From contig OZ244207.1 in the NCBI GenBank assembly GCA_965216875.1, positions 2,112,001-2,176,000 on the forward strand: a DNA stretch of 64,000 bases, in the 5' to 3' direction. The translations under genes and the position numbers were made by a program. The notes beneath the pieces were generated by a model, which worked only from the letters and a program-made list of their open reading frames with translations, was not told the DNA's origin and searched no databases. This DNA is from Rubripirellula sp. Lineage in GTDB: Bacteria > Planctomycetota > Planctomycetia > Pirellulales > Pirellulaceae. The number at the start of each line of letters is the position of its first letter. Within the stretch, counting starts at the first letter, position 1. This document shows positions 6,150 to 44,493 of the stretch, one piece after another.

Positions 6150-9100
6150 TTACGGCTTGACCGCTTTTTCGTAGTGGTTCTTCAAGAAGGAACGGAGTTT
6201 TCTAGATCGGACGTGTTTGGCTTCCGTCAGGTTCAGCGTCACTCGTGCTCTGCGACTGTCAGTCAAGTCGACGGTGCTACCGAGATCAAGGGAGTTAAGT
6301 GATTCGAGGTCGACCGCTTCCGGCGGACCTGCCAAAGTGACCTTCAACGATTCAGGGACCTTGGTCTGCACCTCAGCCCACGGTCCATCAACATTTTCCG
6401 GGCAAACATCGACTTGATCTGGCGACTCGAACGCGAGCGAACCATCGCCGGCAAACTTTTCCAAGACATTCAACACCTGATCGGCGATTTCGAGCGGCCA
6501 ATCAGGCTGAGTGTTATCTGGAAAACCTTTACCTAGAGAATGCCAACGCCGGCCCAAAGCCCGCCAGGGGCCATTGGGAGATTTCGTCTTGCCTGCGCTT
6601 TTCTTGGCCGTGTGCGGGGCATCCAAGATAAGTTGGACATCGGATGCGGACGTTTCGGCTTGCGAGTGAGGCTTGTTTGAAGTCTTCGCCGAGCGTTGGC
6701 TGGACTTCTTCTTTGATCCTGGCTCTATGTCAGATGTTTTTCGAGCCGCTTTCTTCGGCTTGGCTTTGGCGGAAGCGTCCAGAGCTTCCGCGACGAAGGC
6801 TGCGGTCGAGGACACGGGGGGAGCGTTCTTCTTTCGCCTACCGCCCTTTGCCGTTGCCGCAAGGTCTTCGGGCGATCCAGTAAAGACAACCGTTCCGCCC
6901 TCGGCGCCCGCGCCTGGTCCCATGTCGATGATCCAGTCGGCACACTTGATGACGTCCAAGTTGTGTTCGATGGTAATGACCGTGTTCCCGCGATCGACAA
7001 GCTGTTGAATAACGGTCAGCAGTTTGGCGATGTCATCGAAATGCAATCCCGTTGTTGGCTCATCAAGCAAGTAAAGCGTTCGCCCGGTCTGCGGCCGTGC
7101 AAGTTCCGACGCAAGCTTAACCCGTTGCGCCTCGCCGCCCGAAAGCGTCGGCGCGGCTTGTCCGAGAGTGATGTAGTCGAGACCGACATCACAAAGAGTT
7201 TGCAAAACACGGGCGATTCGTTCGTGATCGCCAAAATGAACGAGCGCTTCACCGCACGACATTTCCAGAACATCGGCAATACTGCGGCCGTGGTACTTCA
7301 CCTCAAGAACGTCGTCGTTGTAGCGGCGGCCATGACAATCGTCGCAGTCGACCCAGACATCAGGAAGGAAGTGCATCTCGACACAAAGCTGGCCACTGCC
7401 TTCACAGGTTTCACAGCGTCCGCCCGGAACATTGAAACTGAACGTTCGGGCCGAGTAGCGTCGTTCTTTCGATTCAGGAAGCTCTGCAAAGAGTGTCCGG
7501 ACGGGATCGAAAATTCCAGTGTAGGTCGCGGGATTGCTGCTAGGTGAATTGCCGAGTGGTGATTGGTCCACTCGAATGACCTTGTCCAGGTACTTTGAAC
7601 CGAGCAGTTGTTCGTGTTGTCCCGGACGGGTGCGAGCACGATGGAAGCGACGTGCAAGCACCGGATACAGAATGTCGTCGATGAGCGTGCTTTTGCCGCT
7701 TCCTGAAGGTCCTGTGACCGCGGTAAAAACACCAAGCGGAATGTCGACATCGACCGCTCGCAAGTTGTGTTCGCGTGCGCCCTTGATGCTAAGAAAATCA
7801 ACCAGTGAATTGCCACTTGGGGCCATGACGGGACGTCGCGCATTGGGCACTGCAATGGTTTGTTCGCCATTGATGTAGCCGCCCGTGACCGATGTCGCCT
7901 TGGGCTCGATCTTCTTGGGCGGTCCTTGGGCAACGATCCGACCGCCGTTGCGGCCTGCCAAAGGACCAAAATCGTAAAGGTAGTCGCTGCCAGCAATCAC
8001 ATCGCGATCATGCTCGACGACGAGCAGGGTGTTGCCTTGATCACGGAGTCGATGCAACGCCCCGATCAGTCGTTGGTTGTCGCGAGGATGCAGTCCGATC
8101 GTCGGTTCATCAAGAACGTACAGCACGCCGCACAGGCCGCTACCGAGTTGTGCAGCCAACCGAATGCGTTGTGCCTCGCCTCCCGACAACGTCGCGGCGC
8201 CCCGATGCAAGGTGAGGTAATCCAAACCGACGTCGAGAAGGAAGCTGACCCGAGATTTGATTTCGCGTACCAACTCGCCCGCAATCTTGCGTTCCCGCGC
8301 GTCAAGCTTCCAGGCTTTGACCGTTTCGAACAGTCGTACCAACGGCATGTGGACGAGATCACCGATCGTGCGTTCGCGAAACTTAACGGCCGACGAATCA
8401 TCTCGCAAACGCGATCCATCACAACTCGAGCAATCGATTTCGTCCGTGAACATGTCGAGTTTTCCGCGCAAACTGGGCGACAGACGCGCGGCGGCCTCAA
8501 GTGCTGGATAGAACCCCTTGAATTGATAACGAAAGACAACCTTCTTCGATTTCGAGCGGCTACTCGAATCGGCTTCACGGACTTCGATCCATTGATTGCC
8601 CAGCCCACGGAACAAGATGCGACGCTGCGAGATCGGCAACTCGGCCAGAGGGATGTCGATCGGAATGCCTGTATGCCGCGACAACGCTCGTAGCATCCAC
8701 ATCGAGATGTCGACGTTCACATCGGGCCAAAGCAGCGTCGCCCCTTCGGCCAACGTCAATTCGCTGGAGTGAATCAGTGCCGCGGGGTTTGTTCCCGTTT
8801 GCACGCCAAGCCCTTCGCACTGCGGGCACCATCCGACGGCAGAGTTAAAGGTGAAATGGTGTGGAGTAAGGTCAACGAAGGAACGTCCGCAGTCGCCGCA
8901 CACGAGGTGCTGGCTGTGCGTGATCACTTTCCAGTTGGGCTCGTCCAAGTCGGGGTTCGCAATGGCGACCTGCAGCACACCGACCCCAAGTGACAAGGCT
9001 TGTTCCACGCTATCGCCGATTCGCGAACGCTCGGATTCCTTGACTTCGATTCGGTCCACAACCACCTGGACTTCTTGCCGGCGCCGCGGATCGAGCGACG

Positions 9101-12100
9101 GGGCAGCATCAAGCGCGACCGTGGCTCCGTCGATGCGGACGCGTTGGTAGCCGGTGCTTCGCAACGATTGCCACGTGTCCTTCGAGGCTTCGCCGGCGGC
9201 CACTTCAATTGGCGCGAGCAACAACGCTCGCGTGCCCGATTTCATGGCCATGACTTTGTCGACAATATCGTCTGGCGTTTGAGTGCCGACGCTTGTGTGA
9301 CACTCCGGACAATGCATCGTGCCGAGACGCGCCAGCAGAATCCGCAGGTAGTCGTAGATTTCGGTGACCGTTCCCACGGTACTTCGCGGTGAATGACCGA
9401 GGTTCTTTTGCTCGAGCGCGACTGCAGGCGACAGACCATCGATCCGCTCAACTTGCGGCTTCTGAACTTGGCCGATGAATTGTCGGGCGTAGGAAGAAAG
9501 CGATTCGACGTACCGCCGTTGCCCTTCGGCGTAGATGGTATCCATCGCCAACGAACTCTTTCCGCTCCCTGATGGACCGCAAAAAACGGTCATCTGGTCA
9601 CGCGGAATCGATGCGTCGACCGACTTGAGGTTGTGCTCGCGTGCGGCCTCGACGACCACATGCGTGCGTGCTTTAGGGGGCGATTCGAATGTCTTTGTGG
9701 TAGGTGACTTTGCTTTGCGCGCAGCACGGCGTTTGATCCCAAGAGCCTTGGCGATCGCCGCACCTGTAGAACTCTTTGTGCATTTAGCGACCTCGCGCGG
9801 ACGGCCTGCGATCACGATCTCGCCGCCGCCAACACCGCCCTCGGGACCAAGGTCGATGACCCAGTCGGCGGTTTTGATCACATCGACGTTGTGCTCGACG
9901 ATGACGATCGTGTTGCCACGATCAGCCAAGCCATGAATGACTTTGAGAAGCAATTCGATGTCGGCGAAGTGCAAACCGGTGGTCGGTTCGTCAAGAACGT
10001 AAAGCGTCTTGCCTGTTTCGCGTTTCGAAAGCTCACGGGAAAGCTTGATCCGTTGCGCTTCACCACCAGAGAGCGTCGGTGACGGCTGTCCGAGCTTGAG
10101 GTATTCGAGGCCGACGTCGACCAAGGTCTGTAATTTATCGGCAATCTTCGGAATGTTCTCGAAAAGCTTGTGCGCCTGCGAAATGTCGAGGTCCAACACG
10201 TCGGCAATCGAGTGGCCCTTGAATTCAACGGCAAGCGTTTCTCGGTTGTAGCGTTTTCCCTGGCAAACGGGGCATGTCACCCAAATGTCAGCCAGGAAAT
10301 CCATTTCAAGTTTCGATGCGCCGTTGCCGTCGCAAGCGGAACAGCGGCCACCGTCGACATTAAAACTGAAGCGGCTCGCGGTGTACCCGCGCGTTTTGGC
10401 TTCGGGCATCTGTGCGAACAGATTGCGAATCTCGTCAAACACTTTGACATAGGTTGCCGGGTTGCTTCGCGGCGTGCGGCCGATCGGCGACTGGTCGATC
10501 GCGATCGTTTTGTCGAGGTGTTCGAGCCCTTCGATCAAGTCATGCTCGCCCGGTTCACATTCGGCGCCGTTGAGTTCGTTACGCAGCTTCGGTTCAACGA
10601 TTCCACCAATCAGCGAACTCTTGCCACTTCCCGAAACCCCCGTCACACAAGTGACTGTGCCCAACGGAATCGAGACATCGACGTTTTTTAGGTTGTGGAA
10701 GCGCGCGCCGCGGACGGTCAGCATCGTGTCGTCGTTGATCTCGCGCAATTTCTTGGGCGGATCAATGGATCGCTTCCCCGAAAGGAACTGCCCGGTGACA
10801 CTTTTCTTCGATTTGCAAACCGTCTCCAAGTCACCATTGGCCACGATCTGGCCTCCTTTGACTCCCGGACCGGGGCCAAAGTCGACGATCTTGTCGGCCG
10901 CGCGCATCGTGTCTTCATCGTGCTCGACGACGATCAACGTGTTGCCGGAATCTCGCAGTCGCACCAACGTTTCGATCAACCGATCGTTGTCGCGCGGATG
11001 AAGTCCGATCGATGGTTCATCGAGGATGTAGAGGACGCCCACCAAGCCGCTACCAATTTGCCCGGCAAGGCGAATTCGCTGGGATTCGCCTCCGGAAAGT
11101 GTCGGTGCTGTTCGCCCTAGGGTCAGGTAATTCAATCCGACACCGAGCAGGAAACCGATACGAGTTTGAATCTCCTTGAACGCTTCGCCCGCAATCATCG
11201 CGTCCGTTTCGCTGAGTTTGACAGCGCTGAAAAACTCGGCCAACTCGTCAACTGGCAAATTCGACAATTCGGGCAGCGACATCGATGGCTGCTTGAATCC
11301 CTTTGCAGCGGTTGTGATGGTCACCGCGGAAGCTTGCGGGTTCAGGCGGTCGCCATGACAGTCGGGGCAATCGATGGTTGCCATGTGCTTTTCGAGCTGA
11401 CGCAGTTGCATCTTGTTGCGCGTCGTTCGGTATTTGCCTAGCAGCTCGGGAATGAAGCCCTCGAAGGTTCCAGAGTATTTCTTCGCGCGGCGTCCACCAC
11501 GCCACGTAAACTCCATTGCATCTTCGGTACCCCACAACCAAATGTGTTTGCACTCTTCCGACAGATCACACCATTTGCCTTCGAGCATCGTGCCCGGTTC
11601 AAGCTCGAGTGCTTTGTCGATGGCATCGGCAACGCCGCGATAGATATGGCGTCGATAACGCCCCATGTCTCCCCATTTGCCAAGCAACGAGATCGCACCT
11701 TTGCGAACGGAAAGGCGTTCGTTCGGGATCAGCATTTCGGGCACGAAGGTAAACAAGCGTCCGAGTCCATCGCACGCCTCGCACATTCCCTGTGGGCTAT
11801 TGAAGCTGAACAGTTGTGGCGAAGGAGCGGCAAAACTACGCCCACAGGTTCCGCAAGCGTACTTTGACGAGAAGAGTAGGTCGTCACTCGACGAAGTCGT
11901 TCGTTTTGACTTGCCTTTTCCTTTTGACTTCGTCGTCGCCTCGGCCGGCTTTCCTGCCTGTTGGTCATTCGGTCCCGAGAGGGCAACCATCAGCGACGCA
12001 TCACCAAGTTTCAGTGCAACGTCGACCGCTTCCGAGATGGAACTGCGCTCTCGATCGTCGGGGTGAACTCTTGCAACAACGACTTCGATGTTGTGTCGAT

Positions 12101-12692
12101 GTTGGCGATCAAGATGCGGTGGCTCGGACAGACGGATCGTTTCGCCGTCGACGCGCGCCCGCGTGAAGCCTTGTTTGCGTAGATCTTCGAAGAGGTCTTT
12201 GAATTCGCCTTTTTGTTGGCGAACCAACGGAGCCATGATCCAAAGTGCGGCATCCGATGGCAGCGCCAAGATTCGCGAGGTGATCGCGTCGCGGCTTTGC
12301 GCGGCGATCGGCGTTTTGCATCCCGGGCAATGACCTGTCCCGACTCGCGCATAAAGGACGCGCAAGAAGTCGTGGATTTCAGTGATCGTGCCGACGGTGC
12401 TTCGTGGGTTGGTTCCACTCGATTTTTGGTTGATCGAAATCGATGGGCTTAGCCCGGACACCAAATCGACATCGGGCTTGGGCATCTGCCCCATGAATTG
12501 GCGGGCATAGTTGCTCAAACTTTCGACGTAGCGGCGTTGCCCCTCGGCATAGAGCGTATCGAATGCGAGCGACGATTTACCGCTGCCGGAGACTCCCGAG
12601 AAGCAGATCAGCTCGCCTCGGGGAAGCGTCAGGTCGACGCCCCTCAGATTGTGCTCGCGAGCCCCCTTGACCTTGATTTCGGTCGTCGCCAT
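6150..12692 (-). CDS. uvrA: excinuclease ABC subunit A, double-length (two fused UvrA units)
   Basis: Four Walker A motifs (GVSGSGKSS x2, GPSGSGKSS, GPSGSGKST), four LSGGE signatures, AEGQRRYVESLS twice, CxxC zinc fingers. Alternative start 12728. Confidence 0.96.
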   Translation of the reverse strand: MATTEIKVKGAREHNLRGVDLTLPRGELICFSGVSGSGKSSLAFDTLYAEGQRRYVESLSNYARQFMGQMPKPDVDLVSGLSPSISINQKSSGTNPRSTVGTITEIHDFLRVLYARVGTGHCPGCKTPIAAQSRDAITSRILALPSDAALWIMAPLVRQQKGEFKDLFEDLRKQGFTRARVDGETIRLSEPPHLDRQHRHNIEVVVARVHPDDRERSSISEAVDVALKLGDASLMVALSGPNDQQAGKPAEATTKSKGKGKSKRTTSSSDDLLFSSKYACGTCGRSFAAPSPQLFSFNSPQGMCEACDGLGRLFTFVPEMLIPNERLSVRKGAISLLGKWGDMGRYRRHIYRGVADAIDKALELEPGTMLEGKWCDLSEECKHIWLWGTEDAMEFTWRGGRRAKKYSGTFEGFIPELLGKYRTTRNKMQLRQLEKHMATIDCPDCHGDRLNPQASAVTITTAAKGFKQPSMSLPELSNLPVDELAEFFSAVKLSETDAMIAGEAFKEIQTRIGFLLGVGLNYLTLGRTAPTLSGGESQRIRLAGQIGSGLVGVLYILDEPSIGLHPRDNDRLIETLVRLRDSGNTLIVVEHDEDTMRAADKIVDFGPGPGVKGGQIVANGDLETVCKSKKSVTGQFLSGKRSIDPPKKLREINDDTMLTVRGARFHNLKNVDVSIPLGTVTCVTGVSGSGKSSLIGGIVEPKLRNELNGAECEPGEHDLIEGLEHLDKTIAIDQSPIGRTPRSNPATYVKVFDEIRNLFAQMPEAKTRGYTASRFSFNVDGGRCSACDGNGASKLEMDFLADIWVTCPVCQGKRYNRETLAVEFKGHSIADVLDLDISQAHKLFENIPKIADKLQTLVDVGLEYLKLGQPSPTLSGGEAQRIKLSRELSKRETGKTLYVLDEPTTGLHFADIELLLKVIHGLADRGNTIVIVEHNVDVIKTADWVIDLGPEGGVGGGEIVIAGRPREVAKCTKSSTGAAIAKALGIKRRAARKAKSPTTKTFESPPKARTHVVVEAAREHNLKSVDASIPRDQMTVFCGPSGSGKSSLAMDTIYAEGQRRYVESLSSYARQFIGQVQKPQVERIDGLSPAVALEQKNLGHSPRSTVGTVTEIYDYLRILLARLGTMHCPECHTSVGTQTPDDIVDKVMAMKSGTRALLLAPIEVAAGEASKDTWQSLRSTGYQRVRIDGATVALDAAPSLDPRRRQEVQVVVDRIEVKESERSRIGDSVEQALSLGVGVLQVAIANPDLDEPNWKVITHSQHLVCGDCGRSFVDLTPHHFTFNSAVGWCPQCEGLGVQTGTNPAALIHSSELTLAEGATLLWPDVNVDISMWMLRALSRHTGIPIDIPLAELPISQRRILFRGLGNQWIEVREADSSSRSKSKKVVFRYQFKGFYPALEAAARLSPSLRGKLDMFTDEIDCSSCDGSRLRDDSSAVKFRERTIGDLVHMPLVRLFETVKAWKLDARERKIAGELVREIKSRVSFLLDVGLDYLTLHRGAATLSGGEAQRIRLAAQLGSGLCGVLYVLDEPTIGLHPRDNQRLIGALHRLRDQGNTLLVVEHDRDVIAGSDYLYDFGPLAGRNGGRIVAQGPPKKIEPKATSVTGGYINGEQTIAVPNARRPVMAPSGNSLVDFLSIKGAREHNLRAVDVDIPLGVFTAVTGPSGSGKSTLIDDILYPVLARRFHRARTRPGQHEQLLGSKYLDKVIRVDQSPLGNSPSSNPATYTGIFDPVRTLFAELPESKERRYSARTFSFNVPGGRCETCEGSGQLCVEMHFLPDVWVDCDDCHGRRYNDDVLEVKYHGRSIADVLEMSCGEALVHFGDHERIARVLQTLCDVGLDYITLGQAAPTLSGGEAQRVKLASELARPQTGRTLYLLDEPTTGLHFDDIAKLLTVIQQLVDRGNTVITIEHNLDVIKCADWIIDMGPGAGAEGGTVVFTGSPEDLAATAKGGRRKKNAPPVSSTAAFVAEALDASAKAKPKKAARKTSDIEPGSKKKSSQRSAKTSNKPHSQAETSASDVQLILDAPHTAKKSAGKTKSPNGPWRALGRRWHSLGKGFPDNTQPDWPLEIADQVLNVLEKFAGDGSLAFESPDQVDVCPENVDGPWAEVQTKVPESLKVTLAGPPEAVDLESLNSLDLGSTVDLTDSRRARVTLNLTEAKHVRSRKLRSFLKNHYEKAVKP

Positions 12693-12720
12693 CTCATTTG
12701 CCCCGAGCTTTTCCAGCTCG

Positions 12721-12848
12721 GATCCCATCGAATCAAACCCAATGTTGCATCTGGCAATCCCAGCGGCGCCAATTCCTTGCCCCTCACGCTAAGGGCAAGC
12801 GGCGCGATTCAAAAGGGGGCGCTGGGATTTTGCGATTCGATTTGGATC
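12721..12848 (-). other. nested inverted-repeat structure in the uvrA leader (candidate structured RNA)
   Basis: Five nested complementary blocks: 12721-25/12844-48, 12727-34/12834-41, 12756-65/12820-29, 12766-70/12801-05, 12776-82/12793-99. Confidence 0.45.
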
Positions 12849-27933: not shown

Positions 27934-28641
27934 CTACTCTTCGCTCGCCAGAATGTAGCCGACACCGCGGACCGATTTGATCCGCTGCGGCTTGTTCGGA
28001 TCATCACCGATCTTCTTGCGAAGACGTGAGATTCGCAGGTCAATGGAGCGGTCGAGACCATCGTAACGCACGTCCAACAGATCTTGATAGATCTGATCGC
28101 GTGGCACGACTCGACCGGCATGTTCAGCCAACAGCCATAGCAGGTCAAACTCTGCCGTTGTCAGGTCAACATCGCTGCCAGCAAGGACGACTCGACGGCT
28201 TGCCGAGTCGATGGTCAATTCCCCAACCGAAATGCGCGTCGTTTGGCTGGATGACGGCGTCGTGTCGACGCGCCGCAGGTGCATTCGAAGCCTCGCCAGT
28301 AGCGCGCGGGGCCGAACCGGTTTGGCCATGTAATCGTCGGCGCCCACTTCCAACGCGACCACTTCATCAATCTCGTCACCACGTGCCGTCAGCATCACGA
28401 TGGGGCCGAGAAAATCATTGCGCACGGCGCGGCAAATCTCGATGCCGTCCATTCCTGGCAATCCAATGTCCAGAACGAGTCCTTCGAACTCTTCGTCTTG
28501 AACTCGTTTGACCGCCGAGACGCCGTTAGCTTCCACCGTCACGACAAACCCGTGTTCACCCAGAAAATCCGCAACCATCGAAGCAAGTTGAGAGTCATCT
28601 TCGACCAACAGGAGACGGTAGGGGGCGTTCGATTCGACCAA
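27934..28641 (-). CDS. OmpR/PhoB-family response regulator (RstA-like)
   Basis: LLVEDD, LDIGLPGMDG, MLTA, GADDYMAKP; winged helix LTTAEFDLL...RSIDLRISRLRKK..VRGVGY. Confidence 0.93.
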   Translation of the reverse strand: MVESNAPYRLLLVEDDSQLASMVADFLGEHGFVVTVEANGVSAVKRVQDEEFEGLVLDIGLPGMDGIEICRAVRNDFLGPIVMLTARGDEIDEVVALEVGADDYMAKPVRPRALLARLRMHLRRVDTTPSSSQTTRISVGELTIDSASRRVVLAGSDVDLTTAEFDLLWLLAEHAGRVVPRDQIYQDLLDVRYDGLDRSIDLRISRLRKKIGDDPNKPQRIKSVRGVGYILASEE

Positions 28642-28796: not shown

Positions 28797-29963
28797 TCAG
28801 GAACCGATCGGTTCAAGCGTTTCCCTTTCGACGTTTTCCACATAGCCGTGCGTTTGACAGAAATCTGCCCATTGGCGTTGGATGTTTTCGCGCTCTTCAT
28901 CGCTCAAGTCGTACCGATTGGTCTGATAACCCTTGGTTAACGACAGATACGATGCGATTCCGTCCCGCGCTTGCTCAAAGTCTTCTAAACTGAGCGTGTC
29001 GTAAACGCGTTTGACCTCGGCCATCGGATCGGCGACGAGGTTCTCGTAGTGCACGCAGCAGAATTGGTTTTCGCCCAACGTTGCTTGATCGCGTTGCACC
29101 AATCGATGCATCTCGTTGAACTCGTTAATCACAACCTCTTCGAGGCCTTGGTGCGTTGGTACCTGGAGCGATTGTGATTCGTGAATGACTTGCCACAAAC
29201 GCACGGTCGACGGAAAGACAACCATCGGGTCGCGAACGATGTACACAAACTTGGCGTTCGGGAAGAGTTCCGCCAGATGTTTGATCCGGCAAGTGTGTTG
29301 GGGAGACTTCAGGACGATGCGTTTGTTTCGTCGGAAAGTGATCGCCTGAAGGAATTGCCGAAACTGCCACTTCCACTGTGCGATCGTGGCATCGCTCTGG
29401 TGATCCAAATCGGGGCTGACCGAATCGTCCCAGTCTTTGTTCGGGAAAGCAAAGCGATGGAACCGCGACGGCATTCCTAAACAACACATCGCCGCCTCAT
29501 CTTCCTGGGGCCGATCCGTGCCTTGAAGCATTCGATCGGCGAGTCGCTGCTTGGGAAGAATCAGGTTCAACCAGCGTGCAAACCACCTCTCGGTCAGAAG
29601 GAAATGGTGCGGCGCAAAGCACTCGTACGTCGTCGGATAAGTGTGTCGCGGGTCGCTGCAGAGAAGTTCTTGAAGCAGGGTGGTGCCGCTTCGATAGTGG
29701 CCGATGACAAAAATGGGACCTTCGTTGACTGGGGTCTGTGCGATCTTGCGTCGATACAACAGCGACTGCAACGAGCCCATCACGGAGTTGTTGATGCTGA
29801 ACAGGGTCACCATCAACGCCATTGGCCAGCGCGACGGCGACACCCGATAGTTGCCCTTGCGCAAGAGCCCAAGCCAAGCACCAAAGTTCATCCCGTGCCA
29901 GAGTTTGGGCACAAGGAAACTTTCTTTTGAGTTGACGTCGACTTCGGTCTTAGGACGTTTCAT
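28797..29963 (-). CDS. PAPS-dependent sulfotransferase
   Basis: 5'-PSB loop IFVIGHYRSGTTLL, LKSPQH, 3'-PB YIVRDP..VFPS, HYENLVADP. Confidence 0.9.
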   Translation of the reverse strand: MKRPKTEVDVNSKESFLVPKLWHGMNFGAWLGLLRKGNYRVSPSRWPMALMVTLFSINNSVMGSLQSLLYRRKIAQTPVNEGPIFVIGHYRSGTTLLQELLCSDPRHTYPTTYECFAPHHFLLTERWFARWLNLILPKQRLADRMLQGTDRPQEDEAAMCCLGMPSRFHRFAFPNKDWDDSVSPDLDHQSDATIAQWKWQFRQFLQAITFRRNKRIVLKSPQHTCRIKHLAELFPNAKFVYIVRDPMVVFPSTVRLWQVIHESQSLQVPTHQGLEEVVINEFNEMHRLVQRDQATLGENQFCCVHYENLVADPMAEVKRVYDTLSLEDFEQARDGIASYLSLTKGYQTNRYDLSDEERENIQRQWADFCQTHGYVENVERETLEPIGS

Positions 29964-29979
29964 GGGACGTGGCTAGCAA

Positions 29980-32565
29980 TCAGGATGCGAGTGGGGCACG
30001 CGCATTTCCGTTGCGTTGCGAGACGGCAGAAGTATCCATCAACGCCTTCAGCTTTGCCGCGAGGGTCGAAACATGCGGTTGCTGCATCATGTTCAAGTGG
30101 CCGCCTGGGACTTCATGCAGCTCGATCGTTTCGCAAGATCGTTTCCAATCCTGGAACGGACTGTATTTGGTCTTGCCGATCTTTTGCTCGGCGACCAGCA
30201 AGTTCATCTGAGTTTGGATCGGCTTCGGTCGGTAGTCGACAGCCGCACGCATCGTCGACGCAAAAAGCCCCAACACGCGTTCGGTGTGTTCGCGGCTAGC
30301 GCCCTTGGTGATCAACATTGCGTCGGTCGCGCCTTTGCGAAACTCTTCGTAGTATTGATCTGCGTGTGATTCGTTGATTCGCGTCAACGCGAGGTTCGAG
30401 TTTGGAAAGACCTCGCGAAGCACGGCGATCGAATAGATCGGGCTGCCATCGATGACTGCGAGCAAGGCGACCTCGTCGCCAGAGCGTTCAAGCTGCGAAG
30501 CGATTTCATAGCTCACAATTGCGCCGAAGGACCAACCGGCGACCTGATAAGGGCCCTGTGGTTGGACCGTTTTCATTAGCCGGATGTACTCGCTTGCCAT
30601 TTCGACGACGCTGTCGAGTGGTGTCTCGTTTGGCTCGACGCCGGGTGCGCGAATCCCGTAAAGCGGTTGGTCACTGCCAAGTTCATCGGCAAGGGGCAGG
30701 TAGCAGACGACATTGCCGCCACCGGGATGGATGCAGAAGAGTGGTGTTCGATTACCGTTCGGCTGAATCGGAACGAGGCACGAGGTCTGTTCGGCCGCGC
30801 CACTGTCGACCAGTTTCGACAGCAGTCGCACCGTCGACGCCGCCAACAACTGACTGACTTCAATTTCGACTCCGAAGCGCTTCTTGACTCCGGTTGTCAG
30901 TTCCATCGCTTGCAACGAATCACCGCCTAGACTGAAGAAGGTTTCGTCGAGACCAACCCGCGGTTGATCCAGGATCTGACGAAACAGGGCAGCAACTTGG
31001 CTTTGAGTTTCCGTTTGGTAGACCTGATTGAACGCGGCGGGCGCGGCGTCGAAACGCTTGGTAGCCGGCTCGGTGATGCGTTCCGCAGAAAGAAGTTTGC
31101 GGTCGATCTTGCCGTTGAGCGTTCGGGGAATCGATTCTCTGGCGACGATCGTATGCGGAATCATGTACGGAGGCAGGCTCTCTGCCGCAAAGGCGCGGAG
31201 CTCGTCTTGCGCAGGGACTTTTCCGTTCGCGGGCACGACGAATCCGACGAGAGAGCGTTTGGTACTCGTGTCGTCGCGGACCACCACAACCGCCTCTTTC
31301 ACCAAGGGATGGCCGCCGATCACGTTCTCGACTTCCTCGACCTCGATGCGATGGCCACGGATCTTGACCTGCCCGTCGCGGCGGCCGAGAAAAATCAAAC
31401 TGCCATCGGGCAAGCGACGAGCGTAATCGCCCGTCCGGTACATCCGGCTCGGGCCTTCGCTGAAGGGGTCGTCGACAAATCGTTCGGCCGTCAACTGTGG
31501 CGCTGCGATGTAGCCCGCAGCGACGCCTGGGCCAGAGACGTAGATTTCACCTTCGTCTCCGTTGTGGACGGGCGAACCATCTTCTTGCAAAACGTGAATC
31601 GTTGCGCCGGGAATCGCTTTTCCGATCGGCACGCTCGCATGCTTGTCTTGCGCGAGCACACGGTGGACGGTACACCAGACCGATCCTTCGGTTGGACCGT
31701 ACTCGTTGTGCAACTGAGTTGTTGGGCAAAGTGAATGGTGTTTGCTCGCCAGACTCGATGTGCACGCTTCACCTGCAACCACCACCGTCTTGAGCGATTC
31801 AAGCTCGCTTGCATGATCGTCATCAAGCAGCAAATTCCAAAGCGATGGAATGCAAAGCAGGTGGCTCACCTTCTCGTCGCGAATCATCCGCCGAAGTGCG
31901 TGGATGTCCTGCCTCGCCTGAGCGTCGGCCAAGCAAAGCGTCCCGCCACAAGTGAGCGTCCAATAGATTCCGGCCACTGAACTATCAAAAGTGAGCGGCG
32001 AGACCAGCAGGAAGGTTTCCACCGGAGCTTGGTAATACTCGTGACGCGCCCACGTCGAGAATCGAAGGTTCTCACGAGTGACGGCGACTCCTTTGGGAGT
32101 TCCCGTCGATCCCGATGTGTAAATCACATACGCCAAGTCGCTTGGGCGAGGATCGCAACTTGGCGGCGAAAGAGCGGCTGCGTTGCATGTGAGGTCGACC
32201 ACGACACTGTGGATGCCTTGGATGCGTTCATCACCGATCTTTGACGATTGAACCACCGCCTTGCAGCCGGTCTGTGCAACCATCAGAGCGAGTCGATCCG
32301 CGGGGAGCGCTGGGGAAATCGGGACGTAATGTGCCCCACATCGAAGTGCCGCCAGGAATCCGACGATCGCCTCGAGAGGGCGTGCGGTGTCGACTGCGAC
32401 GCAATCACCACAAGAGATGCCCGACTCGGTCATGAGTCCCGCGACTCTTTCAACCAACTGGGCCAATCGGGCGTAGGTGAGCTCTTCGTGCGCGGTCTTG
32501 AGCGCAACGCGTTCAGGGGTCTCACGACATTGGTCGAGAACCCATTTGCCAATGTCCGCTTTCAT
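29980..32565 (-). CDS. stand-alone NRPS-like enzyme (A-PCP-TE)
   Basis: A3 YVIYTSGSTGTPKG, A4 FDSS, A5 NEYGPTE, A7 YRTGD, A8 GRRDGQVKIRGHRIE, A10 NGKIDR; PCP FFSLGGDSL; TE GWSFG and GGH; no condensation domain. Confidence 0.93.
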   Translation of the reverse strand: MKADIGKWVLDQCRETPERVALKTAHEELTYARLAQLVERVAGLMTESGISCGDCVAVDTARPLEAIVGFLAALRCGAHYVPISPALPADRLALMVAQTGCKAVVQSSKIGDERIQGIHSVVVDLTCNAAALSPPSCDPRPSDLAYVIYTSGSTGTPKGVAVTRENLRFSTWARHEYYQAPVETFLLVSPLTFDSSVAGIYWTLTCGGTLCLADAQARQDIHALRRMIRDEKVSHLLCIPSLWNLLLDDDHASELESLKTVVVAGEACTSSLASKHHSLCPTTQLHNEYGPTEGSVWCTVHRVLAQDKHASVPIGKAIPGATIHVLQEDGSPVHNGDEGEIYVSGPGVAAGYIAAPQLTAERFVDDPFSEGPSRMYRTGDYARRLPDGSLIFLGRRDGQVKIRGHRIEVEEVENVIGGHPLVKEAVVVVRDDTSTKRSLVGFVVPANGKVPAQDELRAFAAESLPPYMIPHTIVARESIPRTLNGKIDRKLLSAERITEPATKRFDAAPAAFNQVYQTETQSQVAALFRQILDQPRVGLDETFFSLGGDSLQAMELTTGVKKRFGVEIEVSQLLAASTVRLLSKLVDSGAAEQTSCLVPIQPNGNRTPLFCIHPGGGNVVCYLPLADELGSDQPLYGIRAPGVEPNETPLDSVVEMASEYIRLMKTVQPQGPYQVAGWSFGAIVSYEIASQLERSGDEVALLAVIDGSPIYSIAVLREVFPNSNLALTRINESHADQYYEEFRKGATDAMLITKGASREHTERVLGLFASTMRAAVDYRPKPIQTQMNLLVAEQKIGKTKYSPFQDWKRSCETIELHEVPGGHLNMMQQPHVSTLAAKLKALMDTSAVSQRNGNARAPLAS

Positions 32566-32904
32566 ATGCCTGCGGAGTAACGAATCAATGCGGTTGTGTT
32601 AAGAAAATGCCAAACAGGCAGAATAGACAAGGTGGGGCAAATAGCAAACGCGATAGGGTGGAATGTCTCTCTCACTCGGCCAAAAAACGACATCACCTGC
32701 CATCGCGACCGTGATCAGAGAGTGCTAGCGGGGTGGAGAATGCCAACCTTCCACTATTTGGCGTCGGGTAGTGACGATCCGGTTCGTCAACAGAATCCAC
32801 CGCAGCCTCTGCGGAGGGGGTGACTTGTTGTTCACGCCAATCAAGCAAAACGTTGCACCCGATTGGGGGCACGTTTACACTTCGGCGGGGGTGGAGATCG
32901 ATGA

Positions 32905-35670
32905 ATGACGAAGCGTCGATGGGCGGGGAAACTAATGAAGACAAAGAGCAAGCAGCGTTGCCGACGTAGATTACGAACGAGGTTTGAGCGTCTCGAAACG
33001 CGCTGGCTTCTGTCCGCTGATCTCGGCCATGACGACCACGATCATGATCACGATGATGATGACCATCATGACGACGAGCCGGCGATCGAAACCGAGGGCG
33101 GTGGTTTCGTCGACCACCATGCCCACGAAGAGCTTCCCGACTTTTTGGTACCGGAAACCAGCGGCGGCGGCGACATCGCGACGGTGCATCCACAGAGTGT
33201 CGGTGAGGTTGGAACCAACGGAGTGAGCGCCAACCTTTGGGTGACCGATGCCTATGTCCGCAACGGTCTCGGCAATGAAATCGCGTCACCCTTTACCGGT
33301 CAGATGGTTGCGATTCAATTGCACTACCAAACGCGCGACCTGCCGTTTGGTTCTTCCTACACCGTCCACTACACCGTCAACGGTGTGACGCTCAACAACG
33401 GCACGCAAACACTGGGCGCCGGCCGCGGTCTTTCTTCGTGGTATTGGTGGCGCGGTGGTTGGTACGCATCACCGGGTACGCACACGGTCGAAATCCATAT
33501 CGACCCCTTCAATCAAGTGGTCGAGTCGGATGAAACAGACAACATCATCTCATTTGAGTTTACGACCGAGACTGCGACCAGTTTTCCGCAGCCATTGATT
33601 TGGCCGGTCGAAGGCAACCCGCAAGAGCTCACCGCGTTCACCAACTACGTCGATGTCAATCCGCTAAGCGGCGTGACTGATTTCAATGGTGGTTCCTTTT
33701 CCTACAACGGCCACAACGCATGGGACTTTGGGCCTGGTAACTTTTATGCTCAGGACCAAGGGATCGAGATTTACGCTGCTGCCGATGGAACCGTCACCGC
33801 GACGCATGACGGCGAGTTCGACCGTCAAGTGGAATGGCTCTCGCCGGCACCGCAGGCAAACTACGTGATCCTTGATCATGGTGGCGGTTGGACGACGATT
33901 TACTGGCACCTTCGCCGAGACTCGGTGCGAGTCAATGTGGGCGACGTGGTACAGGCTGGCGACATCCTGGGCTACATGGGCAGTTCCGGAATCTCGTCTG
34001 GCTCGCACATCCACTATGGATTGCGTCACCACGGTTTTACGATTGAACCGATGTACGACATTGAGACCTATCTTGATCCGTCGCTCGCGGACATTGGGTA
34101 TCCAGGCGACGTCAAGACGAAGATGCACAGCGGTGTGACCAACTACACACCCAACTCACATATCCGTGAGCGTCCTTCGGACATCGAAGTCTTTCCACAA
34201 ACGTCCGGTCAAGTTGCCTACGTTTGGGGATACTTCGCAGGTTTGCAGGTCGGCGACTTGCTGCAGTACGTTTGGAAACGACCCGACGGATCTGTCTTCA
34301 CAACGACCGGTCGAACGATGACGACGACTTACAGCCAGTCCTGGTGGTGGTGGTCACGCAATATCGGAACGCAGCCGCAGGCGGGAGAATGGACAATCGA
34401 GTTTTTCGTCGACGGCAACCTGCTCGGGACGGACAGCTTTGAAGTGGTTCCGGGAGGAGCACCGGAACTGAGGATCGAGTCCGAAGGCAACATCGTGATT
34501 GATGAACGATTCACGCCTATCGACCTCGGCGAGATCGAGCAGTTCGGCGGCCAAGCGTTTCAGACCTTCACGGTTCGCAATCACGGTCACGCTCCTGCGA
34601 ACATCGAGTCTTTGGAGGTCCCCCGGGGATTCAGCATTGCTGACGGTTTGGCGTCGACCATCGGTCCAGGCCAGTCCGATTCCTTCACTCTGATGCTTGA
34701 CGCTAGTGAAGCAGGCTACTTTGGCGGCGAAGTGCGCATCCAAACCGACGATGCCGATGAAGATCCCTACAACTTCTCGGTCGAAGGGATCGTTACGCCA
34801 GGTCCTGGCGCACAAAAACTCTACCTAGGAATCTCGGAACGCAAAACGCTTGAAGGCACCGAGATCGTTGGCAATGTCATCCGATCGGACACCGGCGCTG
34901 GTTTGGGGGCACCGCTTGTCGTGACCCTGACCTCAGGTGACACGACCGAGCTGACCGTGCCCGCGACGGTGACAATCCCTGCGGGTCAAACGCGAGCGAT
35001 CTACATGATCACGGCACTCGACGACGAAGAAAGCGACGGTGATCAACTTGTTGAGGTCATGGCGACATCACCATCAACCGCTCCGGCCTACAACGAACTG
35101 ATGGTGGTCGATCCGCCATCAGCACCTGTTGTCGCATCGGTGATCATCAATGGCGGTGACGAGCAACGCTCCACCCTCGAACAGTTGCGCGTTGTGTTCG
35201 ACAAGATCGTCGAAATTGATGATCAAACAGGTCAGCCCTTCGCGATCTCGAATCTCGATACACTTGCCAACGTTGACCACGACACCACGGTGTCCGAGGT
35301 CGATGGTCAAACCGTGGTCGACTTCCTGTTCACCTCACAAACCAACGGTTCGGGCTCGCTCGTTGATGGCGACTACCTGCTGCAGATCGATGGCAACTCG
35401 ATTTCCGCCGACGGCATCGCACTTGATGGCGATGGCGATGACACCCCTGGCGGGACCCATGAGTTTGGACGCGTCGAGGCCGACAACTTTTTTAGAATGT
35501 TCGGCGATGGCAACGGCAATGGACGGGTCGAGTTATTCGACTTCGCTGCCTTCCGGTCAACCTACAGTCTCGTCGATGGTGACGCGGGCTACCTGGGGCA
35601 TTTTGATTCCAACGCAAACGACCGCATCGAACTGTTTGACTTTGCCGCCTTCCGAAACAACTTCGGATAA
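32905..35670 (+). CDS. secreted multidomain M23 metallopeptidase with planctomycete export signal and dockerin-like C-terminus
   Basis: RRRLRTRFERLETRWLL signal, His/Asp tract, CARDB-like ESDETDN, M23 motifs HNAWD, YWHL and HIHY, Ig-like domains, paired DxNxxxRxELFDFAAFR repeats. Confidence 0.85.
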   Translation: MTKRRWAGKLMKTKSKQRCRRRLRTRFERLETRWLLSADLGHDDHDHDHDDDDHHDDEPAIETEGGGFVDHHAHEELPDFLVPETSGGGDIATVHPQSVGEVGTNGVSANLWVTDAYVRNGLGNEIASPFTGQMVAIQLHYQTRDLPFGSSYTVHYTVNGVTLNNGTQTLGAGRGLSSWYWWRGGWYASPGTHTVEIHIDPFNQVVESDETDNIISFEFTTETATSFPQPLIWPVEGNPQELTAFTNYVDVNPLSGVTDFNGGSFSYNGHNAWDFGPGNFYAQDQGIEIYAAADGTVTATHDGEFDRQVEWLSPAPQANYVILDHGGGWTTIYWHLRRDSVRVNVGDVVQAGDILGYMGSSGISSGSHIHYGLRHHGFTIEPMYDIETYLDPSLADIGYPGDVKTKMHSGVTNYTPNSHIRERPSDIEVFPQTSGQVAYVWGYFAGLQVGDLLQYVWKRPDGSVFTTTGRTMTTTYSQSWWWWSRNIGTQPQAGEWTIEFFVDGNLLGTDSFEVVPGGAPELRIESEGNIVIDERFTPIDLGEIEQFGGQAFQTFTVRNHGHAPANIESLEVPRGFSIADGLASTIGPGQSDSFTLMLDASEAGYFGGEVRIQTDDADEDPYNFSVEGIVTPGPGAQKLYLGISERKTLEGTEIVGNVIRSDTGAGLGAPLVVTLTSGDTTELTVPATVTIPAGQTRAIYMITALDDEESDGDQLVEVMATSPSTAPAYNELMVVDPPSAPVVASVIINGGDEQRSTLEQLRVVFDKIVEIDDQTGQPFAISNLDTLANVDHDTTVSEVDGQTVVDFLFTSQTNGSGSLVDGDYLLQIDGNSISADGIALDGDGDDTPGGTHEFGRVEADNFFRMFGDGNGNGRVELFDFAAFRSTYSLVDGDAGYLGHFDSNANDRIELFDFAAFRNNFG

Positions 35671-43767: not shown

Positions 43768-44493
43768 ATGTTCCCGCGAGACCGACAACCTGAATTGATG
43801 GATGACCCGGCATTGCCGGAGGATCAGCATCGACACGCGCTTTCGGGATTGGCGCGACTGAATCGCTTTAGTGGAGTGGCCAGTGCAATGTACAGCCGCT
43901 TGGCTCAGTACTTCGACACCCAAAATGGGTGCCTTCGCCTTCTTGACGTTGCCTGTGGTTCAGGTGATCTGCCGATCGCCTGGGCAAAACGGGCCAAGCG
44001 CGAGGGAGTCCCCCTGCAAATCACGACGGTCGATATCAGCGAGCTGGCCGCGGAGGAGCAACGACGTCGCGCGGCCGATGCGGGTGTTGAAATTGAGACG
44101 TTAGTGCTGGACTGTTTGCACCAGCCGCTTCCAACCGGTTTTGACGTCGTCACCTGCTCACTCTTCATGCACCATCTCGAGCCCCGCGACGTGACTCGTT
44201 TGCTGCAGTCGATGCAGGCTGCGACCGAAGGTGCCCTGTTGGTGTGTGACCTCGACCGCGCGATGCATAATCTGGCGATGGTCACGGTCGCAAGCCGGCT
44301 ACTTACCCGGTCGCGTGTCGTCCATGTTGATGCCGCTCGCAGCATCCGGGCAGCGTACACGCGGAGCGAGTTCAAACAAATTGCCGAGGACGCGCTGCTG
44401 CGTCCCGTCAAGGTCCAGCGACTCTTCCCCTGCAGATTCATAGCGTCCGTTGATGACAGGACGGTGCCGCTAGTCAGTCCTGCGTTCGCCTGA
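43768..44493 (+). CDS. class I SAM-dependent methyltransferase
   Basis: ELMDDP N-terminus, LDVACGSGD, FDVVTCSLFMHH, DAARSIRAAY. Confidence 0.88.
   Translation: MFPRDRQPELMDDPALPEDQHRHALSGLARLNRFSGVASAMYSRLAQYFDTQNGCLRLLDVACGSGDLPIAWAKRAKREGVPLQITTVDISELAAEEQRRRAADAGVEIETLVLDCLHQPLPTGFDVVTCSLFMHHLEPRDVTRLLQSMQAATEGALLVCDLDRAMHNLAMVTVASRLLTRSRVVHVDAARSIRAAYTRSEFKQIAEDALLRPVKVQRLFPCRFIASVDDRTVPLVSPAFA

Follow-up and report, generated by a model that had tools for sequence, protein, structure and literature searches.

A rare two-gene unit in Pirellulaceae pairs a predicted histidine-loading NRPS-like enzyme with a sulfotransferase

A conserved gene pair of patchy distribution

The DNA analysed here, a 64,000-nucleotide stretch of contig OZ244207.1 from Rubripirellula sp. 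(assembly GCA_965216875.1; hereafter the window), contains a stand-alone gene for an enzyme that resembles non-ribosomal peptide synthetases (NRPS-like), with adenylation, carrier and thioesterase domains (A-T-TE; P0001), directly followed by a gene for a sulfotransferase (ST; P0002) dependent on 3′-phosphoadenosine 5′-phosphosulfate (PAPS). The two genes constitute a real, rare and conserved unit that occurs patchily, and a sulfated molecule is its likeliest outcome. We tentatively favour a pathway in which histidine is sulfonated while bound to the carrier, probably at its alpha-amine, and is then released by the TE. The parts of such a pathway, amino-acid-loading NRPS-like enzymes and on-carrier sulfonation by SulN, are known; their combination was not found described.

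Both genes lie on the minus strand with the NRPS-like gene first. A preliminary description of this DNA had reported an 861-aa A-T-TE protein without a condensation (C) domain and, 16 nt after its stop codon, a co-oriented PAPS-type sulfotransferase; these were borne out by the open reading frame (ORF) and its Pfam domains in the first case, and by the intergenic gap and a Sulfotransfer_3 assignment in the second (Table 1).

A family search of 401 genomes with a T-TE query, in which 62 genomes matched, five candidates were scored per genome and the best 30 loci plus a few more were inspected, recovered histidine-coded A-T-TE proteins in the source genome (G000), G016, G088 and G109. The sulfotransferase gene directly follows the A-T-TE gene in G000, G016 and G088, so that the pair was found in two other Pirellulaceae genomes among 400 sampled. 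G016 is of the same genus as the source, and its pair proteins show 55% and 68% identity. In both G016 and G088 the pair keeps its order and strand although the genes flanking it are unrelated each time, so the adjacency is more than chance. A fourth pair is probably present on a metagenome contig, as the proteins P0005 (54%) and P0125 (64%) are each found only on a Logan contig, 21,663 bp long. Among contigs from four sequencing runs, a close relative (X5) has the pair on a single 6,008-bp contig, aligned without gaps and with 86 differences. The supposition that the pair is conserved as a unit thus holds in that it is kept amid unrelated flanks, but its occurrence is patchy, with the pair present at three of the seven histidine A-T-TE loci that have DNA context.

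Beyond the family, a T-TE search of 400 genomes of the phylum gave no match at E ≤ 1e-42, and the named neighbours in further scans were metagenome-assembled genomes (MAGs) of Pirellulaceae and Pirellulales. Histidine codes were found at 151 of the 159 scan loci and a P0002-like gene at none. Looser profiles detected some sulfotransferase at 25 of the 159, directly downstream at 11 (seven of these from one lineage), which was not taken as enrichment because there was no matched control.

The A-T-TE enzyme is predicted to load L-histidine

Pfam analysis of P0001 identified AMP-binding (residues 11-352), AMP-binding_C (411-486), PP-binding (523-585) and Thioesterase (608-835) domains and no C domain. 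The carrier serine (Ser550) and the TE triad (Ser679, Asp706 and His823, with Ser679 in a GWSFG nucleophile motif) are intact and invariant across eight close homologues. A degraded C-A-T-TE gene, or a fragment of a larger known cluster as the preliminary description had allowed for, was rejected on the frame limits, the flanks and a lone distant C domain. The frame opens just 11 codons 5′ of the ATG (872-aa frame) and the divergent neighbouring gene begins at 32905, which rules out loss of a C domain upstream; the sole C domain of the source genome lies in a 3963-aa frame 2 Mb distant, which together with the frame limit means that P0001 is not a clipped module.

The A4 motif reads TFDSSVAGIYW with the aspartate retained (Asp194), as previously described. 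The A-domain code, DSALVAEVWK, whose ten positions were placed by motif rather than by direct alignment to GrsA, is identical at nine of ten positions to DSALIAEVWK, a published code assigned to seven histidine and three beta-hydroxyhistidine modules in Table S21 of PMC12283262, and the G088 orthologue carries the published code exactly. From this closeness L-histidine is the predicted substrate, which supports, as a prediction, the earlier proposal that the enzyme loads an amino acid. The stand-alone form is unusual, because most histidine-coded A domains in the scans (129 of 149 locus rows) follow a C domain.

The sulfotransferase is a distinct paralogue with a changed, probable pocket residue

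P0002 has a Sulfotransfer_3 domain (residues 83-329, E = 2.7e-36) with the motifs RSGTT (91-95), PQEDE (152-156) and RDP..S (244-252), as well as K219. Its 5′-phosphosulfate-binding (5′-PSB, RSGTT) and 3′-phosphate-binding (3′-PB, RDP..S) motifs are invariant, as expected for PAPS sulfotransferases of PF13469. The best sequence and Foldseek matches of P0002 (structure model pLDDT 90) are mycobacterial Stf9 (2z6v) and Stf1 (2zq5), at 18% identity; the third and fourth fold matches are olefin synthase (OLS) and CurM domains, with E-values of 1.2e-5 and 0.059 against the OLS and CurM ST sequences. The label Stf3-like derives from homologue names, many homologues being called omega-hydroxy-beta-dihydromenaquinone-9 sulfotransferase by JGI; the NCBIfam Stf3 model did not match, and ESM Atlas returned only unnamed Planctomycetota sulfotransferase clusters.

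This sulfotransferase family is present in 146 of 151 family genomes, and the source genome has a second, housekeeping-type copy with 40% identity to P0002. In a FastTree phylogeny, the paired sulfotransferases stand apart from the housekeeping copies in a 15-member group (support 0.99). Position 157, adjoining the invariant PQEDE, is Phe in 140 of 160 sequences outside this group and Ala in six of the 175 family sequences (G000, G016, G088, G109, P0124 and P0125). Each of the four genomes of the family with the histidine enzyme has Ala157, including G109, whose copy is unlinked to its histidine enzyme and is encoded divergently to a P450 gene. The substitution suggests a changed acceptor pocket that tracks the histidine enzyme, its carriers being kin rather than independent cases.

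Family members lie between flhB and flhA, after a 3-hydroxyacyl-CoA dehydrogenase gene, before short-chain dehydrogenase/reductase (SDR) genes and after an LPG_synthase_C gene, which fits lipid-like substrates for the family in general. An operon of 3-hydroxyacyl-CoA dehydrogenase, sulfotransferase and SDR genes recurs at L327, L328, L329, L339, L323 and L332. A stand-alone LPG_synthase_C (tRNA-dependent aminoacyl transferase) gene lies directly upstream of a Stf3-like sulfotransferase gene in G272 (L391:8252-10830) and G064 (L084:3192-4957). The housekeeping copy of the source genome (G000:C1:5359790-5363285) has a MazG-like gene next to it and a P450 gene ~1.5 kb away, and in G016 a P450 gene lies ~8 kb from the housekeeping-type copy.

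A proposed load-sulfonate-release pathway and its alternatives

Building on the observed domain anatomy, catalytic motifs and adjacency and on the histidine predicted from sequence, we infer an on-carrier action, an alpha-amine target and a release step. The A domain of P0001 would activate L-histidine and hold it on the carrier arm, P0002 would add a sulfo group from PAPS to the bound histidine in trans, and the TE would release N-sulfohistidine or pass it to an acceptor. The alpha-amine is the likeliest site because an imidazole N-sulfonate would be labile. The histidine code, the kept pair, the separate paralogue and Ala157 argue for this route, as do the SulN precedent and the fused and Tyr/Phe-coded systems described below; phenylalanine on a carrier, like glycine and beta-alanine, offers only the amine. 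Phosphopantetheinyl transferases (PPTases) and adenosine 5′-phosphosulfate (APS) kinases, which also count in its favour, were found in all four genomes tested (G000, G016, G088 and G109), the source genome encoding two of each away from the window, with the PPTases in frames of 247 and 210 aa. It also encodes an MbtH-like protein.

Several observations weigh against this pathway. No sulfotransferase gene adjoins the histidine A-T-TE gene in G109, G801, L182 or G829, the last of these with flanks of just 1.5 kb. The G801 locus is the same contig as L132, and the L132 genome, G799, has a single member of the sulfotransferase family, of the housekeeping group; plain hydrolysis by the TE would be futile at such partnerless loci. 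Inspection by eye brought out no TE residue that sets the sulfotransferase-linked copies apart, G088 and G000 are not resolved together in the A-domain tree, and IQ-TREE support for the nine-member paired core (26 of 175 rows) is just 90/85 (unstarred). Many members of the sulfotransferase family adjoin lipid genes, and the family name Stf3 and its cited member Nbc48 both stand for O-sulfotransferases of free lipophilic alcohols. As for the fused proteins, P0002 is not orthologous to their ST domains, given the CurM-type match of just E = 0.059 noted above, the sample over-represents histidine, and the one chain that also has a TE (P0355) is cut off at its N-terminus.

The main rival, which we regard as possible, is that the TE moves histidine from the carrier to a cellular acceptor (a lipid alcohol, an amine or a small molecule) and the sulfotransferase O-sulfates either this acceptor or the transfer product, so that a sulfated histidyl-lipid would result. 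The preliminary description had likewise placed transfer or condensation by the TE before sulfation; that order stays in contention, but the evidence leans slightly towards N-sulfonation on the carrier and subsequent release. Acceptor transfer would suit the Stf3-like ancestry of P0002, its amphipathic helix (residues 121-136, with no transmembrane segment) and the 3-hydroxyacyl-CoA dehydrogenase and SDR neighbours of its family. It would also suit the sister sulfotransferases that follow an LPG_synthase_C gene in G064 and G272, although these are weakly linked to the paired group (82/79) and lack Ala157. Further points in its favour are that this TE group is also met alongside an LpxL-type acyltransferase (G074, G098 and G182) and ketosynthase III (KSIII), that partnerless histidine A-T-TE enzymes require a productive TE, and that precedents are described for Ava_3855 and the FrsA and Sln9 TEs. 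However, the two-gene unit contains neither an acceptor gene nor one for an acyltransferase, an MBOAT or a flippase, and the change at position 157 speaks for a substrate different from that of the housekeeping copy.

Condensation of two histidines by the TE (to His-His or cyclo-His-His), with the sulfotransferase modifying the released dimer, is improbable. It would account for the stand-alone copies, and fungal A-T-TE enzymes as a rule join two copies of one substrate (PMC9047271). Those enzymes take aromatic keto acids, however, no sequence link to keto-acid dimerising enzymes was found, and carriers loaded by KSIII or by a ligase are served by this TE group as well.

We give little credence to the two genes being co-transcribed neighbours with unrelated substrates and no functional link. 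The sulfotransferase family is nearly ubiquitous amid many different neighbours, four of the seven histidine A-T-TE loci lack an adjacent sulfotransferase, and two of the three pairs come from one genus; yet the pair is kept across two genera with different flanks, its gap stays at 16-21 nt within the genus, its sulfotransferase is a dedicated paralogue, and Ala157 tracks the histidine enzyme even where the two are unlinked (G109). Curacin and olefin synthases use O-sulfation followed by TE-triggered decarboxylative elimination, and we find it very improbable that a trans-acting hydroxylase feeds such a reaction here by forming beta-hydroxyhistidine on the carrier: the code is also used by beta-hydroxyhistidine modules, the Ala157 sulfotransferase gene of G109 is divergent to a P450 gene and the ST-SDR-KSIII-T/TE operons of G012, G257 and G311 look like such chemistry, but the unit has no hydroxylase, no P450 was found in G088, which is 87% complete (non-P450 hydroxylases were not searched for), the sole P450 of G016 is near the housekeeping copy, and the G109 P450 is closest to CYP170-like models and 26% identical to the nearest in G000.

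A broader version of the favoured on-carrier pathway, speculative and rather unlikely in its entirety, would be a two-gene route to free N-alpha-sulfohistidine or a sulfamoyl-histidyl conjugate, by a Stf3-type lipid sulfotransferase retooled (Phe to Ala at 157) for a carrier-bound amine. The unit would then belong to a Pirellulales A-T-TE kit with swappable partners (sulfo for histidine, methyl for tyrosine and phenylalanine) and would be the split counterpart of widespread, seemingly undescribed fused A-T-sulfotransferase sulfamate starter modules. If the pathway is true, a Stf3-type enzyme is able to act on a carrier-bound amine, and N-sulfo amino acids become accessible by a short enzymatic route. 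Little of planctomycete chemistry has been mapped, and a two-gene system with a predicted substrate is fully tractable in vitro.

Comparison with known systems

The unit would work most like a NikP-type load-modify-release cassette. In nikkomycin biosynthesis, histidine is reportedly loaded on a stand-alone A-T protein (NikP1), modified in trans by NikQ to beta-hydroxyhistidine and released by a TE (NikP2). Here, too, the A-T, TE and modifying enzyme are encoded together, but the TE is fused rather than separate and the partner is a sulfotransferase rather than a P450. CurM and olefin-synthase ST-TE domains likewise combine a sulfotransferase and a TE at a carrier, but act on a beta-hydroxyacyl chain and are distant from P0002 in sequence (E 1e-5 to 0.06). 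The shinorine synthetase Ava_3855 is said to have the domain order A-T-TE. As an NRPS-like enzyme it similarly activates an amino acid, joining serine to mycosporine-glycine (PMC8145676); a four-gene mycosporine cluster makes the acceptor there, whereas no sugar-phosphate cyclase, O-methyltransferase or ATP-grasp gene adjoins our pair, and its code is for histidine.

Sulfazecin biosynthesis provides a precedent for the sulfonation step: according to PMC11298585, the free-standing PAPS sulfotransferase SulN N-sulfonates the amine of a carrier-bound peptide in trans, ahead of release by the SulM TE, and the sulfotransferase gene adjoins the NRPS gene as it does here. SulM, however, is multimodular, uses diaminopropionate (Dap) and has a Cys TE (Gln-Cys-Asn) that forms a beta-lactam, in contrast to the single module, histidine code and Ser TE of P0001. 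P0002 is tied to the Stf3 family (Mycobacterium tuberculosis Stf3 and Streptomyces Nbc48) through the names of its homologues and its matches to Stf9 and Stf1. Known members of that family differ in O-sulfating free lipophilic alcohols, and Nbc48, placed with Stf3, O-sulfates a macrolactone (PMC7081687); the unit has no linked P450 and PAPS operon of the Stf3 sulfomenaquinone type.

Fungal keto-acid enzymes (AtrA, TdiA and AcyN type) share the A-T-TE order and the absence of a C domain, but activate aromatic alpha-keto acids (PMC9047271), while P0001 keeps Asp194 (the position 235 Asp) and a histidine code. The transesterifying FrsA and Sln9 TEs take the unit held on a carrier and pass it to an acceptor that is free (PMC7794379), yet an acceptor-making assembly line adjoins them and none adjoins P0001. 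The unit therefore falls outside the keto-acid dimerisers, monobactam systems, CurM-type domains and mycosporine clusters.

The claim that the pathway is undescribed was upheld for the combination, while amino-acid-using NRPS-like enzymes as such are known, Ava_3855 among them. A literature search, mostly of open-access journals, found no paper on an A-T-TE/sulfotransferase pair or on N-sulfohistidine as a metabolite; for the latter, the only hits concerned arylsulfate sulfotransferases and tyrosine sulfation. The accessible part of the list of NRPS-like types in PMC10510592 does not include such a pair, and the words NRPS, sulfotransferase, histidine and thioesterase are absent from a Planctomycetota review (PMC12078418). 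Sulfamates are described in PMC9169493 as rare natural products, mostly from marine animals.

Sister systems and fused A-T-sulfotransferase proteins

The TE of P0001 belongs to a Pirellulales group (tree support 0.88). Because this group recurs with other donors and partners, the unit looks like one setting of a kit of loader, carrier-TE and one group transferase. A-T-TE enzymes with Tyr or Phe codes, assigned from the published code supplement, have a class I methyltransferase gene, always of one dedicated family, directly after them at six of nine loci (L087:8105-11592, L282, L088, L382, L380 and L379, in six Pirellulales genomes). Stand-alone T-TE proteins of the group occur in ST-SDR-KSIII-T/TE operons (G012, G257 and G311; L074:7578-11804, L280:5455-9735 and L281:9456-14055), which resemble a split form of curacin/olefin termination chemistry and have Trp at sulfotransferase position 157. 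The group also occurs in operons of aminotransferase III, AMP ligase, T/TE and LpxL-type acyltransferase genes (G098, G074 and G182; L080, L089 and L285), which we take to be reminiscent of lipid A aminoacylation by AlmEFG.

A histidine-coded A domain, a carrier and a sulfotransferase share one frame at L178 (1196-4243) and L161 (2310-5210), the latter running on into a ketosynthase (KS). Other such proteins (P0249-P0368) are likewise ~1000 aa and mostly without a C domain. A T-ST query matched 511 proteins, and codes were sought in the best 120 of these and the two query proteins. Among these 122, 110 codes were readable: 78 Ser-, 10 Gly-, nine His- (eight distinct), four Thr- and two beta-Ala-type, with seven other, where the Ser, Gly, Thr and beta-Ala assignments are presumptive, no entry for a Gly or beta-Ala code having been found in the published code supplement. 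The sample leans to histidine because the query was His-type. Traces of a C domain were seen in none of eight His-type and one of 12 Gly/beta-Ala-type proteins, and P0355 combines A, T, ST and TE in one chain.

Since glycine and beta-alanine on a carrier have only the amine on offer, it is natural to infer that the fusions with these codes N-sulfonate an amino acid on its carrier; the fused family as a whole likely represents sulfamate or sulfate starter modules. The fused ST domain of L178 is CurM-type (E = 1.7e-69 to CurM ST), so the fusions bear on P0002 by analogy only. Together with the Tyr/Phe A-T-TE and methyltransferase pairs, these more than 100 fused proteins represent two larger leads.

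Other histidine-coded clusters were also observed. At L397:6133-19999 (G1143), L170-L173, L175 and L176, a high-GC lineage, one member of which is a MAG labelled Planctomycetaceae, has C-A-T, serine hydroxymethyltransferase (SHMT)-like, C and C-A(His)-T genes, then a different sulfotransferase and no TE, adjoining an MBOAT gene. At L142, L149, L190 and L223, C-A(His)-T-TE genes lie inside polysaccharide clusters (O-antigen ligase, GDSL and sulfotransferases), with a P450 gene upstream in L190. Two of these loci are named Acidobacteria; they were set aside, as the sulfotransferases may act on glycans.

Gene layout and surroundings

Table 1. Features of the two-gene unit in window coordinates.
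Feature	Position	Strand	Basis or remark
Stand-alone NRPS-like gene, A-T-TE, 861 aa (P0001)	29980..32565	-	ORF call; TIGR01733 392 bits, above cut-off
Adenylation domain, aa 11-486, code DSALVAEVWK, L-His predicted	31108..32535	-	
Peptidyl carrier domain, aa 523-585, attachment Ser550 (GGDSL)	30811..30999	-	
Type I thioesterase, aa 608-835, Ser679/Asp706/His823, Pirellulales TE group	30061..30744	-	
PAPS-dependent sulfotransferase gene, 388 aa (P0002), Stf3-like	28797..29963	-	ORF call, Pfam, motifs, fold
Intergenic gap, 16 nt (21 nt in G016)	29964..29979	-	
Promoter-like motif TTGCTA-N16-TATTCT, below scan threshold	32620..32647	-	Kept in G016 as TTGCTA-N16-TAATCT

The motif TTGCTA-N16-TA(T/A)TCT upstream of the pair is a putative promoter; a promoter and terminator scan of the locus gave no signal above shuffles. 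Recent transfer of the pair was not supported, its GC content at third codon positions (GC3) being 0.65-0.67 versus 0.62-0.65 in neighbouring genes. A downstream response regulator gene (27934-28641) was rejected as a member of the unit, since it is absent beside the pair in G016 and G088.

The preliminary description had found no other tailoring or PPTase gene in the window. This stands for PPTases, P450s and halogenases, none of which occurred among the ORFs scanned (the main ORFs of at least 200 aa, not all 55), but not for tailoring genes in general, as a class I methyltransferase gene (43768-44493) lies 11 kb off, outside the conserved unit. Other window genes encode an M23 peptidase carrying Ig-like domains and, at its N-terminus, a stretch rich in His and Asp (32905-35670, plus strand), divergent from the NRPS-like gene; a 690-aa protein with two tandem bpMoxR AAA domains (PF20030; 36310-38382, plus strand), with no vWA partner evident adjoining; and a double-length UvrA of 2192 aa (6150-12728, minus strand).

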